The notes beneath the pieces were generated by a model that had not been told where the DNA came from, ran no database searches, and saw only the letters and a program-made list of their open reading frames with translations. Positions 1,988 through 5,945 of a DNA stretch of 5,945 nt are shown here, piece by piece. Position 1 is the stretch's first letter. Each line of letters begins with the position of its first letter. This stretch comes from a virus. Its lineage: Duplodnaviria > Heunggongvirae > Uroviricota > Caudoviricetes. The stretch lies in the IMG/VR virus record IMGVR_UViG_3300022692_000031, positions 1 through 5,945 of that record; one strand, 5' to 3'. Position numbers and translations under genes: made by a program.

Positions 1988-2805
1988 AACTGGAAGATTT
2001 ACCGAAATACTACTCCCCAAAATCCCCCGGCCTGACTGATGCATCGGCCTCAACGTCAAAAGATGCGCTGAGTATCACTGATGTGATGGCCGCGCAGGGC
2101 ATGACACAGAATCGGGCTGAGATGGGGTTTTCTGCGTTCCTTGGGAGAATGGGCATTAGTATGAATGACAGAGAGCGGGCAACAGAATTGCTGACAGAAT
2201 ATGCACTCAGTCGGTGTGATCGCGTGGCGGCGTTAAGAAAACTCCCGGCAGAAATAAAACCGGCAGTGATGCGTATTATGGCTTCGTATGCGTTTGAAGA
2301 TTATGCCCGTAGCGCGGCGAGCAAAAAACAGTGCCCCTGCTGTCACGGAAAAAAATTTATTGAAAGCGAGGTTTTTACAAACAAGATCCAGTATCCGGAT
2401 GGTAAGCCGCCAGTGTGGGCAAAGTGCACAAAAGGCGTGTATCCGTCTTACTGGGAGGAATGGAAAAAAGTCAGGGAGGTGGTAAAAGTTGCCTGTCCGG
2501 AGTGTGGCGGAAAGGGGGAGGTTTCCACCGCCTGTAAAGATTGTCGTGGGCGCGGTGTTGCCATTCATCGTGAAGAGTCGGAAAAACAGGGTGTGCCGGT
2601 TTTCAGAAACTGTCAGCGTTGTGGTGGGCGTGGCTATGAAAGATTACCTTCAACGGAGGCATTTAATGCCATATGTAATGTAACCGATGCCATATCTCTT
2701 GATACATGGAAAAAAACAGTTAAACGTTTTTACGATACGCTGGTGGTGCAGTTTGATATTGAAGAAGCATGGGCAGAACAACAACTGAAAAAGGTGACCA
2801 GATAG
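1984..2805 (+). CDS. Q-type late-gene antiterminator (QuuQ-like) with DnaJ-type CxxCxGxG zinc-finger repeats
   Basis: 273-aa ORF in the canonical position after rusA and before a promoter-terminator unit. It contains the repeats CPECGGKG, CKDCRGRG and CQRCGGRG plus CPCCHGKK. Size and cysteine repeats fit the large Qin-type Q family from memory. Confidence 0.7.
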   Translation: MKLEDLPKYYSPKSPGLTDASASTSKDALSITDVMAAQGMTQNRAEMGFSAFLGRMGISMNDRERATELLTEYALSRCDRVAALRKLPAEIKPAVMRIMASYAFEDYARSAASKKQCPCCHGKKFIESEVFTNKIQYPDGKPPVWAKCTKGVYPSYWEEWKKVREVVKVACPECGGKGEVSTACKDCRGRGVAIHREESEKQGVPVFRNCQRCGGRGYERLPSTEAFNAICNVTDAISLDTWKKTVKRFYDTLVVQFDIEEAWAEQQLKKVTR

Positions 2806-2810
2806 CTTTG

Positions 2811-2838
2811 TTGATTTTTCCCGAATCTGTGGTAAATT
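2811..2838 (+). promoter_or_regulatory. Candidate late promoter PR' (-35 TTGATT, 16-bp spacer, extended -10 TGgTAAATT)
   Basis: Sigma-70-like hexamers read directly, immediately downstream of the Q stop and about 50 nt upstream of the terminator at 2888-2909. This is the expected PR'-tR' arrangement of lambdoid late control. Confidence 0.35.
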
Positions 2839-2887
2839 TGCCCTAACGATGGGCGTTTTATGCCTGACGTTAGAAGATTTTTTACAC

Positions 2888-2909
2888 CCCGCCGCCTGGC
2901 GGGTTTTTT
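2888..2909 (+). terminator. Rho-independent terminator, candidate tR'
   Basis: Stem CCCGCC, loop GCCT, stem GGCGGG, followed by TTTTTTAT. Confidence 0.6.
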
Positions 2910-3031
2910 ATGACTGAAATCGCGTCAGTACAGTAAACGCGCTGGTGGCGGTGAATACCGGTCTTTCAGCTTGCTGGCTTTTTTGACAAGAGTTATTGGT
3001 GTGTCACGTTAACCGAAAAAGGGAAAAAGAC

Positions 3032-3229
3032 ATGCTGAAACAGCAGGATATGACAGAAACTGCCAGAGCAGTGTTTAATGAATTAAGCGTCACCGAACCG
3101 GCGACAGTCGGGGAGATTGCGCAGAATACTTACCTTTCACGCGAACGCTGCCAGTTAATACTGACCCAGCTTGTTATGGCGGGTCTGGCAGACTATCAGT
3201 TCGGTTGTTACAGACGCCTTCGGTCCTGA
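3032..3229 (+). CDS. Small (65 aa) putative winged-helix DNA-binding protein, PapI/FaeA-like pattern
   Basis: ATG at 3032 preceded by a purine-rich AAGGGAAAAAG. The segment TVGEIAQNTYLSRERCQLILTQLVMAGL resembles the helix-turn-helix region of the small PapI/FaeA family (compare [28 protein letters not shown]) from memory. Confidence 0.5.
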   Translation: MLKQQDMTETARAVFNELSVTEPATVGEIAQNTYLSRERCQLILTQLVMAGLADYQFGCYRRLRS

Positions 3230-3240
3230 AGGCTTTTTTA
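3216..3240 (+). terminator. Strong Rho-independent terminator overlapping the stop codon of the small ORF
   Basis: Perfect stem GCCTTC/GAAGGC with loop GGTCCT, followed by TTTTTTATTT. The TGA stop at 3227-3229 lies inside the hairpin. Confidence 0.65.
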
Positions 3241-3242
3241 TT

Positions 3243-3252
3243 TGTGGTAAAT
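3243..3252 (+). promoter_or_regulatory. Second copy of the 10-mer TGTGGTAAAT (extended -10-like element)
   Basis: The same 10-mer occurs at 2828-2837 inside the PR' candidate. This copy sits just after the terminator and upstream of the methyltransferase gene. Confidence 0.25.
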
Positions 3253-3328
3253 GGGCGGCTGGTGGGTGTTAGGGGCACTCACCAGCCATCTGCTCATGCG
3301 TCTGGATCACAAGCAAACCTCAGGCCCA

Positions 3329-3347
3329 CTGCTTTGCGCAAAAGCAG
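3329..3347 (+). promoter_or_regulatory. Near-perfect dyad CTGCTTTGCGCAAAAGCAG about 35 bp upstream of the methyltransferase start
   Basis: Inverted repeat read directly from the sequence, with 7-bp arms and one unpaired A. It could be an operator or an RNA hairpin. Confidence 0.3.
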
Positions 3348-3379
3348 AATGAGCCTATCAGAGACAGGCTTAATGATCC

Positions 3380-4438
3380 ATGCTTAACACTGTAAAAATA
3401 TCCAGTTGTGAGTTAATCAACGCCGACTGCCTGGAATTTATCCGGTCGTTACCCGAAAATTCTGTTGACCTGATAGTCACGGATCCGCCGTACTTTAAAG
3501 TGAAGCCTGAGGGCTGGGATAACCAGTGGAAGGGCGACGATGATTACCTGAAGTGGCTGGACCAGTGTCTTGCGCAGTTCTGGCGGGTGCTGAAACCTGC
3601 CGGAAGTCTTTACCTGTTCTGTGGCCATCGCCTGGCATCTGACATTGAAATCATGATGCGTGAACGCTTCAGTGTGCTGAACCATATTATCTGGGCGAAG
3701 CCGTCCGGACGCTGGAACGGGTGCAACAAGGAAAGCCTGAGGGCGTATTTCCCCGCCACAGAGCGCATTCTGTTCGCGGAACATTATCAGGGGCCGTATC
3801 GTCCGAAAGATGCCGGGTATGAGGCGAAGGGCAGGGCACTGAAACAGCATGTGATGGCACCGCTGATTGCTTACTTTCGTGATGCGCGTGCTGCCCTGGG
3901 GATAACGGCAAAACAGATTGCTGATGCCACAGGAAAGAAAAACATGGTGTCGCACTGGTTCAGTGCCAGTCAGTGGCAGTTACCGAACGAAAGCGATTAT
4001 CTGAAATTACAGGTGCTGTTTGCCCGGGTGGCAGAAGAGAAGCATCAGCGGGGTGAACTGGAAAAGCCCCACCACCAGCTGCTGGAGACGTATACTTCAC
4101 TGAACCGGCAGTATGCGGAACTGCAGAGTGAATATAAGCATCTGCGGCGGTATTTTGGCGTGACGGCGCAGGTGCCGTACACGGATGTGTGGACGCATAA
4201 ACCGGTGCAGTACTATCCCGGGAAACATCCGTGCGAAAAACCGGCAGAAATGCTGCAGCAGATAATCAGCGCGAGCAGTCGTCCGGGTGACCTGGTTGCA
4301 GATTTTTTCATGGGGTCGGGTTCGACAGTCAAAGCCGCGATGGCGCTGGGGCGGCGTGCAACTGGCGTTGAGCTGGAGACTGAACGTTTTGAGCAGACGG
4401 TCAGAGAAGTTCAGGATTTAGTCAGTCAGAACGGATGA
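3380..4438 (+). CDS. DNA methyltransferase, beta-class amino-methyltransferase (probably N6-adenine), with no restriction partner in the window
   Basis: 352-aa ORF. The catalytic motif IV DPPY (LIVTDPPYF) is near the N-terminus and the SAM-binding motif I FxGxG (DFFMGSGST) near the C-terminus, the beta-class order seen in CcrM, HinfI and RsrI methyltransferases. Confidence 0.9.
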   Translation: MLNTVKISSCELINADCLEFIRSLPENSVDLIVTDPPYFKVKPEGWDNQWKGDDDYLKWLDQCLAQFWRVLKPAGSLYLFCGHRLASDIEIMMRERFSVLNHIIWAKPSGRWNGCNKESLRAYFPATERILFAEHYQGPYRPKDAGYEAKGRALKQHVMAPLIAYFRDARAALGITAKQIADATGKKNMVSHWFSASQWQLPNESDYLKLQVLFARVAEEKHQRGELEKPHHQLLETYTSLNRQYAELQSEYKHLRRYFGVTAQVPYTDVWTHKPVQYYPGKHPCEKPAEMLQQIISASSRPGDLVADFFMGSGSTVKAAMALGRRATGVELETERFEQTVREVQDLVSQNG

Positions 4439-4478: not shown

Positions 4479-4554
4479 GGCCCTTTAGCTCAGTGGTGAG
4501 AGCGAGCGACTCATAATCGCCAGGTCGCTGGTTCAAATCCAGCAAGGGCCACCA
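4479..4554 (+). tRNA. tRNA with anticodon CAU, ileX/ileZ-like (tRNA-Ile2, lysidine type; an anticodon-only caller would say Met)
   Basis: Manually folded 76-nt cloverleaf: acceptor GGCCCTT/AAGGGCC, D-stem GCTC/GAGC, anticodon loop CTCATAA, T-arm GCTGG-TTCAAAT-CCAGC, encoded CCA. The overall sequence closely resembles E. coli ileX as I remember it. Confidence 0.85.
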
Positions 4555-4563
4555 TATCACATA

Positions 4564-4640
4564 CCGCCATTAGCTCATCGGGATAGAGCGCCAGCCTTCG
4601 AAGCTGGCTGCGCGGGGTTCGAGTCCTCGATGGCGGTCCA
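4564..4640 (+). tRNA. tRNA-Arg, anticodon UCG
   Basis: Manually folded 77-nt cloverleaf: acceptor CCGCCAT/ATGGCGG, D-stem GCTC/GAGC, anticodon stem CCAGC/GCTGG with loop CTTCGAA, T-arm CGGGG-TTCGAGT-CCTCG, encoded CCA. The 5' C1 is unusual but pairs with G72. Confidence 0.75.
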
Positions 4641-4918: not shown

Positions 4919-5347
4919 ATGTATTGCCGTGCTGTACCGGTTCTTGTTTTGATATTAGCCAGTCTGACAACTGGCTGCACAAAAGATGTATCGACAAATA
5001 ATCATGATGCTTCTCTGTATCACTCAGATAAATTAATAAAGTCGCAAAATTTGAGCTCATCGGAACGTACCCCTGATGCCAGTGAAGAAATCCGGCAGTA
5101 TGCCATTCAGGTCAGGAAAGCCATAGAAGAACAGTTAAAGGATGCGAGTAAGTATTCAGGAAAAGAGTGTTCACTGAGAATGTATATGGCCCCGAATGGT
5201 CTTCTGCTACAGGTTAAAAGAGAAAGCGGTGATCCCGATTTATGTCGTGAAGCGATGAATGCAGTAAAGAATGCTGATATACCATCACCACCGTCTTCAG
5301 GAGTATATAAAGCATTTAGAAATGGCGTGCTGGATTTTAAACTCTGA
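4919..5347 (+). CDS. Putative secreted lipoprotein homologous to TolA C-terminal domain III
   Basis: 142-aa ORF with GGAG 8 nt upstream of the ATG. The N-terminus has a hydrophobic signal (AVPVLVLILASL) followed by LTTGC, a lipobox-like cysteine. Residues about 60-142 align at roughly 50 percent identity with my recollection of the E. coli TolA C-terminus (YAGQIKSAIESKFYDASSYAGKTCTLRIKLAPDGMLLDIKPEGGDPALCQAALAAAKLAKIPKPPSQAVYEVFKNAPLDFKP), including both cysteines. Confidence 0.8.
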   Translation: MYCRAVPVLVLILASLTTGCTKDVSTNNHDASLYHSDKLIKSQNLSSSERTPDASEEIRQYAIQVRKAIEEQLKDASKYSGKECSLRMYMAPNGLLLQVKRESGDPDLCREAMNAVKNADIPSPPSSGVYKAFRNGVLDFKL

Positions 5348-5380: not shown

Positions 5381-5636
5381 TTTGGGGCGCTGGAAAGATA
5401 TTGTGCTGTGAAGTGTTAAATCCCTCACAATTCAGTAAGTTGACAGTTGCCTGTCAGACTGAGCATTTGTTAAAAAAATTTCGCATGGTGAATCCCCCTG
5501 TGCGGAGGGGCGACTGGTGAACGGTATGATCTCTTTGATGATCGTAAGCGAGAATACGCGGGTTTGGTGTCACCGGGCTGAACTCACCGGGAGGCACCCG
5601 GCACCATGCTCATGGTGATACAGAAATGCGGCTTCA

Positions 5637-5660
5637 GCCCCTCTCCGGAGGGGCTTTCTT
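5637..5660 (+). terminator. Rho-independent terminator for + strand transcripts
   Basis: Stem GCCCCTC, loop TCCG, stem GAGGGGC, followed by TTTCTT. Confidence 0.5.
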
Positions 5661-5666
5661 ATGGAC

Positions 5667-5814: not shown

Positions 5815-5945
5815 CCGGGTGTCCTGGTTGCAGATTTCTTCATGGGGTAGGGTTCGGCAGTTAAAGCAGCGATGGCGCTGGGGCGTCGTGCAACTGGCGT
5901 TGAGCTGGATACCGGGCGTTTTGAACAGACTGCGCAGGAAATCAG
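5815..5945 (+). pseudogene. Decayed 3' fragment of a second DNA methyltransferase gene (runs past the window edge)
   Basis: About 130 nt are roughly 85-90 percent identical to the 3' end of the intact methyltransferase gene (4283-4418). In the equivalent frame, motif I reads FMG-stop-GSA because TAG at 5848-5850 replaces TCG; there is no upstream coding sequence or start. Confidence 0.75.

Follow-up and report, generated by a model that had tools for sequence, protein, structure and literature searches.

The DNA analysed here is a 5,945-nt window, by which we mean the whole stretch at its full length, and it represents the late-control region of a lambdoid E. coli prophage. A 701-nt segment of it (window 2700-3400) shares 99.7% identity with E. 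coli O111:H8 strain 8E, and no full-length match to the whole window above about 93% was found in complete E. coli genomes. A DUF968 (NinG-like) gene (551-1600) and rusA (1613-1987) precede the gene for the antiterminator Q, which encodes 273 residues on the plus strand (1984-2805). They are followed on the same strand by the late promoter PR' and its terminator tR', by a small ORF of 65 residues (3032-3229) with a weak winged-helix (TrmB-like) match, and by a DNA methyltransferase gene (3380-4438; Pfam PF01555, 5.3e-44, with the same annotation in relatives), which is the next gene of the late transcript. Two plus-strand tRNA genes sit 3' of the methylase, as in Stx phages: one with a CAT anticodon (4479-4554), called Met and possibly an ileZ-like tRNA-Ile2 as annotated in phiP27, and tRNA-Arg(TCG) (4564-4640).

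The right-hand part of the window holds further plus-strand elements. An ORF of 142 residues (4919-5347) combines an N-terminal lipoprotein-like signal (…LASLTTGC) with a TolA C-terminal domain (PF06519, 5.7e-23) and corresponds to tolA in the annotation of relatives; this TolA-like moron might interfere with Tol-dependent phage or colicin entry. Beyond it lies a full-length match to STnc100 RNA (5454-5666; Rfam RF02076, 172 bits, E = 3.9e-40), a prophage-associated sRNA that has lately been tied to PasD (bioRxiv 10.64898/2026.05.13.724894). A 116-nt direct repeat with 90% identity links 4283-4398 to 5815-5930, so that the 3' end of the methyltransferase reappears, in diverged form, where the window ends. 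Two methylase C-terminal segments thus enclose the tRNAs, the TolA-like gene and STnc100, an arrangement suggestive of an insertion or of a junction with another prophage-like segment.

The Q protein matches Pfam PF03589 at 3.8e-51, the family of lambda Q, PF06530 being that of Q21 (PMC9388147). It also aligns with the lambda Q structures in the PDB (7UBM/7UBN, E = 2.5e-41) over residues 1-113 and 182-273, while about 68 extra residues in between (about 114-181) are absent from lambda Q and contribute additional CxxCxGxG zinc-ribbon motifs. Across its full length the protein is 40.7% identical to phi80 Q. Judged by these homologies, Q belongs to the lambda-Q family in its long, phi80-like form; an assignment to the Q82 family proved a wrong lead, Q being of the lambda family. 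In lambda, the zinc-ribbon arm of Q contacts positions 11-13 of the QBE, a 13-bp asymmetric site embedded in PR' (PMC9388147). The extra CxxCxGxG segment falls at the position of this arm, and it may explain the differing spacer sequence at PR' here. From the end of the Q stop codon (2805) it is 6 nt to the -35 hexamer of PR' and 23 nt to the first copy of the 10-mer TGTGGTAAAT, the repeated word that is the subject of this analysis.

Read in order on the plus strand, PR' consists of a -35 hexamer TTGATT (2811-2816), a 16-nt spacer, an extended -10 (2830-2838) composed of TG (2830-2831), G and the hexamer TAAATT (2833-2838), and then TGCCCT, AACGAT and GGG ahead of the tR' hairpin. The -35 hexamer occupies the same position as TTGACT in lambda and the annotated TTGCAT in phi80, and the T at -15 and the G at -14 can be read straight from the sequence. 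The initial transcribed region (2838-2853) contains a -35-like TTGCCC (2838-2843), AACGAT (2845-2850) and GGG (2851-2853), with spacing and sequence as in lambda TTGACTCAACGATGGG; a TTG followed by AACGAT is the arrangement of a sigma-dependent pause element, and it is conserved in relatives. The -10 hexamer is the same as in the PR' of lambda and P22, and from -10 through +9 the pattern TAAATT TGnCnn AACGAT GGG matches both with identical spacing. We predict a +1 at 2845 and a pause near 2860-2861. A generic promoter scan of 2600-3500 returned zero promoters, which is uninformative for PR' because its score of 8/12 falls below the threshold of 9/12, even though it is clearly homologous to lambda PR'.

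Copy 1 of TGTGGTAAAT (2828-2837, plus strand, an exact word match) takes in the 3' end of the spacer (TGTGG), the TG of the extended -10 and all but one base of TAAATT. Its first half, TGTGG, is also the 3' part of a putative Q-binding element in the spacer, TCCCGAATCTGTGG (2819-2832, plus strand), which is proposed from its conservation and from the phi80 record, where the annotated Q-binding site TCGCGGA lies at the equivalent position. The spacer TTTCCCGAATCTGTGG is retained in PHB10 (Q 56% identical) despite a -10 of TAATTT, and nearly retained in Kpn_R1, the Q proteins of these two phages being 56-63% identical to the one here. The spacer around 2819-2832 is a probable Q-binding site. Loading of lambda Q also needs sigma region 2 on a -10-like pause element and sigma region 4 moved to a -35-like site just upstream of that element (PMC9388147), and every position required for it is filled by appropriate sequence around copy 1. 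The PR' segment, copy 1 with it, hardly varies across 80 viral contigs with a Q of 91% identity or more, and the -35 is conserved in 80 loci. By homology, copy 1 is part of an ordinary lambda/phi80-type Q-dependent late promoter, a well-known kind.

The intrinsic terminator tR' (2888-2909, plus strand) is formed by a stem-loop at 2888-2903 and a T-run at 2904-2909. Its loop and stem variants preserve pairing across loci, and the RNA from 2845 to 2912 folds at -21.9 kcal/mol (z = -2.9). Terminated in the absence of Q, a transcript that starts at the +1 (2845) and ends with the T-run (2909) is predicted to measure about 65 nt. An earlier, sequence-only reading of this DNA had placed the 10-mer within the extended -10 of PR', had called the PR'-tR' interval short at about 50 nt, and had seen in it a likeness to the lambda 6S RNA unit. 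All of this holds: the TG at 2830-2831 gives a true extended -10, about 50 nt separate the end of the -10 hexamer (2838) from the start of the tR' stem (2888), and a lambda-family Q is combined with a near-identical PR' core and a following terminator. The unit corresponds to lambda 6S RNA and likewise to the PR'-tR' RNA of Stx phages (PMC7547250). The alignment with late promoters of the same Q family that it called for agrees as well, the stretch from the -10 to the pause being nearly identical to lambda and P22 PR'.

A search of Rfam over 2811-3300 gave zero matches at E up to 1. In the predicted RNA of about 65 nt, a 5' hairpin and the terminator hairpin are separated by a U-rich single-stranded stretch, a modelled layout that would resemble that of Hfq-type sRNAs and parallel StxS (PMC7547250). 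If this RNA acted like StxS, it could be a prophage sRNA, a question separate from that of the repeat.

When both strands of the whole window are searched, exactly two copies of TGTGGTAAAT are found, both on the plus strand, at 2828-2837 and 3243-3252, with a start-to-start distance of 415 nt. The exact recurrence noted earlier is thus confirmed, but is it more than chance would produce? For a word fixed in advance, 0.01 exact matches are expected in 5.9 kb, a figure that overstates the surprise because TGTGGTAAAT was picked only after the window had been read. Outside the single genuine long duplication, 43 other distinct 10-mers recur on the plus strand, compared with about 20 recurring 10-mers expected in Markov-simulated sequence. 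A repeat search of the window with a minimum length of 14 nt returned only families of at least 15 nt, and several of these are chance repeats of 15-26 nt. The recurrence of TGTGGTAAAT is no greater than chance would give. In 1.45 Mb of fetched lambdoid DNA, TGTGGTAAAT is confined to the two homologous contexts, and its interpretation as a general motif was rejected for want of a third.

Nor do the surroundings of the two copies resemble each other. In the register of the 10-mer, 20 of 60 positions are identical upstream and 11 of 60 downstream; local alignment of the copy 1 flanks with the copy 2 flanks gives p = 0.14 and 0.89 against shuffles, and p = 0.30 for the whole segment. Neither ungapped nor gapped comparison of the 60-nt flanks detects similarity above shuffles.

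Copy 2 (3243-3252, plus strand, an exact word match) begins 3 nt past the T-run of a second intrinsic terminator (3216-3239, plus strand; stem-loop 3216-3233, T-run 3234-3239), which agrees with its earlier placement just after a terminator. The stem of this terminator is conserved in 15 haplotypes. The copy is embedded in ...CCTGAAGGCTTTTTTATT upstream and GGGCGGCTGGTGG downstream, and inspection of both flanks showed that a -35, the Q-binding half-site CCCGAAT, a -35-like TTG and AACGAT are all absent. G3253 comes next, so that the one TG-extended register of copy 2 reads TAAATG and lacks the T at -7, while the other register, GTAAAT, carries a T at position 2; neither offers a -10 hexamer in which position 2 is A and position 6 is T. 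The TG at 3245-3246 does stand where an extended -10 would have it, and upstream of it runs a T-rich tract (3234-3242). Among 119 relatives retrieved via the adjacent 25-mer, about 47 (~40%) carry TGTGGTAATGGG, with one A fewer, which amounts to an AAAT versus AAT polymorphism. With this allele the sequence becomes TAATGG (2/6 matches), so that even the partial -10 is destroyed.

Directly after copy 2, a hairpin is predicted on the plus strand (3251-3297; -30.7 kcal/mol, z = -4.4). Its 5' arm contains a Chi octamer (3258-3265), and in the commonest allele its 3' arm is CACCCACCAGC, a second, inverted Chi. Changes in this hairpin are one-sided only, with G-C or G-U kept and zero compensatory pairs. 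A structured RNA involving copy 2 itself was considered and rejected: a possible helix of 6-10 bp, 3205-3214 with 3241-3250, could form around the second terminator, and it is invariant and G-U-rich. Support from covariation is absent, since this helix never varies and the hairpin at 3251-3297 changes on one side at a time. Copy 2 is probably ordinary intergenic sequence, and a function of its own is unsupported.

How the two copies are distributed among relatives indicates why they stand side by side. Homology with most Stx2 and other phages starts at the tR' stem (~2888) and often ends at ~3270, and in phages with other Q types it likewise begins at tR' (2888-2909). We sampled 112 loci that carry the small-ORF module together with enough upstream sequence. 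Copy 1 is absent from 79 of them, where several visibly different leaders are joined at the tR' hairpin, and the three of these loci that were checked encode Q21-family PF06530 proteins. Copy 2 is accordingly not co-inherited with a cognate Q, a lambda-type PR' being missing from the same 79 of 112 loci. From the opposite side, the downstream module and copy 2 are both missing from 25 of the 72 loci that have this Q and copy 1; in phage Evi, tR' runs straight into tRNA genes and the same two are absent. The E. coli set gives a similarly composite picture, with 1065 of 2376 matching records covering at least 80% of window 2700-3400 and the others partial. Each copy is inherited with its own module, since across relatives either one is found without the other and the two meet only in mosaics.

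The small ORF of the downstream module (3032-3229) gives a weak TrmB/DprA_WH winged-helix signal (Pfam TrmB 0.0012, below the cutoff) and is annotated in relatives as hypothetical or as a TrmB family regulator. Flanked by the two terminators, this 65-residue ORF is widely conserved, occurring in the late leaders of numerous Stx and non-Stx prophages. The tR' hairpin itself appears as a recurrent mosaic junction (2888-2909; related loci L007-L126), at which various PR'/leader types are joined to the same downstream module, each ending in its own CCCGCC...GGCGGG terminator variant. The window is also rich in Chi octamers GCTGGTGG, with five sites compared with 0.21 expected: 1234-1241 and 4072-4079 on the minus strand, and 2739-2746, 2941-2948 and 3258-3265 on the plus strand. 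The three plus-strand octamers cluster around the repeat. The octamer at 3258 starts 6 nt past copy 2 and has been retained in 104 of the 106 related loci; the mosaic breakpoint (~3270) falls directly past it. The octamer at 2941 persists in 76 of 106 loci, even in phage Evi, where its flanks diverge.

We conclude, with a probability of about 85%, that the two copies have neither a common origin nor a common function and were brought together by lambdoid mosaic modules that assort independently. Module A (about 1984-2887) would comprise the lambda/phi80-type Q gene with its own PR' and carry copy 1; module B (about 2888-3270) would comprise tR', the winged-helix small ORF, the second terminator and the Chi-bearing hairpin and carry copy 2. 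Because 43 other 10-mers recur and the copies travel with separate modules, the repeat is a by-product of mosaic assembly and not a real repeated element. Some observations speak against coincidence. If the post hoc choice of the word is ignored, an expectation of ~0.01 makes pure chance not trivially likely. A further match to GGGCG across a 13-nt gap could hint at a degenerate relic, albeit one whose gapped alignment is no better than shuffles, and copy 2 does have a well-placed TG and an upstream T-rich tract.

The TG and the tract are the basis for reading copy 2 as a weak extended -10 promoter (TGgTAAATg), from which the methylase and the tRNA genes would be transcribed independently of Q in lysogens. 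The TG at 3245-3246 stands one base upstream of TAAATG, behind the T-rich stretch of 3234-3242; the methylase is situated behind two terminators, and the scan of 2600-3500 offers zero other promoter-like sites that could serve it. Yet a G takes the place of the highly conserved T at -7 that the scan criteria require, no -35 is present, and roughly 40% of relatives have TAATGG, with 2/6 matches. Moreover, gene order adequately explains the methylase as a late gene reached by Q-modified polymerase. We regard such a promoter as very unlikely, and the proposal of a promoter at copy 2 in the sequence-only reading fails on the same grounds, its sole TG-extended hexamer lacking the T at -7 and being lost in about 40% of relatives.

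It is similarly improbable that copy 2 is the degenerate relic of an ancestral lambda-type PR', or the trace of a duplication or of an insertion in which a target-site duplication flanks a moron. A relic would account for the fact that a 13-nt deletion of the pause element extends the match to TGTGGTAAAT plus GGGCG (compare TGTGGTAAAT[ttgccctaacgat]GGGCG with TGTGGTAAATGGGCG), and it gains from the restriction of the 10-mer to these two contexts within 1.45 Mb of lambdoid DNA against an a priori expectation of ~0.01. Its weakness lies in the flanks, which are not significantly similar. A segmental duplication was rejected for this reason, the flank alignments being no better than shuffles. An insertion with a 10-bp target-site duplication fails at both ends: lambda, P22, Evi and PHB10, which have no copy 2, run on unbroken through both edges of copy 1, including its right flank, and Q21-type cassettes without copy 1 are contiguous with both flanks of copy 2. 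Neither copy resembles an insertion boundary, given that its flanks are contiguous in relatives that lack the other. Recombination between the copies was also discarded, as the deletion junction that it predicts, CGAATCTGTGGTAAATGGGCGG, is absent from the viral contig collection. The modular duplication suggested earlier therefore falls, each copy being contiguous with its own module in relatives without the other and the flanks being dissimilar. Taken jointly, the two residual possibilities, a degenerate PR' relic and, where phages have the AAAT allele, a weak extended -10 promoter, remain unlikely.

A narrower variant, which we consider highly improbable, is that in AAAT-allele phages copy 2 and the T-rich tract of the terminator form a weak extended -10 start or a sigma-retention pause, providing low Q-independent expression of the methylase and tRNAs during lysogeny. 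If it were true, the identity to the -10 region of PR' would reflect convergent selection for contacts with sigma-70 regions 2 and 3. The least probable reading, a second Q-utilisation or sigma-dependent pause site that would re-load or modulate the late elongation complex after the second terminator, and one that had also been proposed from the sequence, draws on the location of copy 2 just past a terminator and on its partial -10-like sequence, but of the elements by which a lambda-family Q is loaded (PMC9388147) only part of the spacer and of the -10 is there, with CCCGAAT, TTG, AACGAT and a -35 all missing, a pause element needs an A at position 2 and a T at position 6, the latter wanting in TAAATG, and copy 2 persists behind cassettes of the Q21 family, the Q of which has another recognition site.

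The late operon would work as follows. By homology with lambda, sigma-70 holoenzyme would initiate at about 2845 and the polymerase would pause at ~+16/+17 as sigma re-binds the -10-like AACGAT. Without Q, transcription would terminate at tR' (2888-2909) and release the RNA of ~65 nt. Q bound to the spacer site would load onto the paused polymerase, which would then read through tR' and the second terminator (3216-3239) and go on to transcribe the small ORF, the methylase, the tRNAs and the lysis genes. Each step of this scheme, from the positions of start and pause to the binding of Q at the spacer and the read-through, is inferred.

For annotation, the consequence is that TGTGGTAAAT at 3243-3252 should not be entered as another late promoter or as another qut site. 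What the window does offer is a clean example of a long, phi80-like Q whose PR' is lambda-like, with an extended -10, and whose predicted terminated leader is very short (~65 nt). It also shows the tR' hairpin as a recurrent mosaic junction, at which several Q/PR' cassettes are combined with the same downstream module.

Comparison with the lambda PR'/qut/6S RNA cassette shows a homologous Q and the same succession of Q gene, TAAATT, TTG, AACGAT, GGG and intrinsic terminator. Lambda PR' reads TTGACT, a 17-nt spacer, TAAATT, TGACTC, AACGAT and GGG, and P22 has the same arrangement from the -10 to AACGAT; phi80, Stx2k, PHB10 and Kpn_R1 share the PR' architecture with variant hexamers. The differences from lambda concern the spacer, which has 17 nt (TATTGAATAAAATTGGG) in lambda and 16 nt (TTTCCCGAATCTGTGG) here, and the dinucleotide ahead of the -10, which is GG in lambda and a true TG extended -10 here. 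Because the spacers differ in length and sequence, the Q-binding specificity probably differs from that of lambda. In addition, lambda PR' lies about 45 nt past the Q stop codon, compared with 6 nt here, its terminated RNA has about 194 nt, compared with about 65 nt predicted here, and its Q is without the ~68 extra residues that bring a second zinc-ribbon-like CxxCxGxG pair.

These extra residues are a point of likeness to phi80, whose long Q (gp17, 269 aa) combines PF03589 with a DnaJ-like zinc motif. In the phi80 record the annotated -35, Q-binding site and -10 are arranged as they are here, and with a terminator about 50 nt downstream the unit is short there too. On the other hand, every element differs in sequence (TTGCAT, TCGCGGA, TAGATT, AACGCT), and TGTGGTAAAT is absent. 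In Stx phages, PR' is constitutively active and is terminated at tR' in lysogens, which gives rise to the short RNA by-product StxS (PMC7547250). There the PR'-tR' interval is 258 nt and the RNA is processed to 74 nt, whereas the RNA predicted here has ~65 nt and an unrelated sequence. Downstream of the promoter the relationship is closer, and many Stx2 phages share the module B region described here, with tR', the small ORF, the methylase and the tRNAs.
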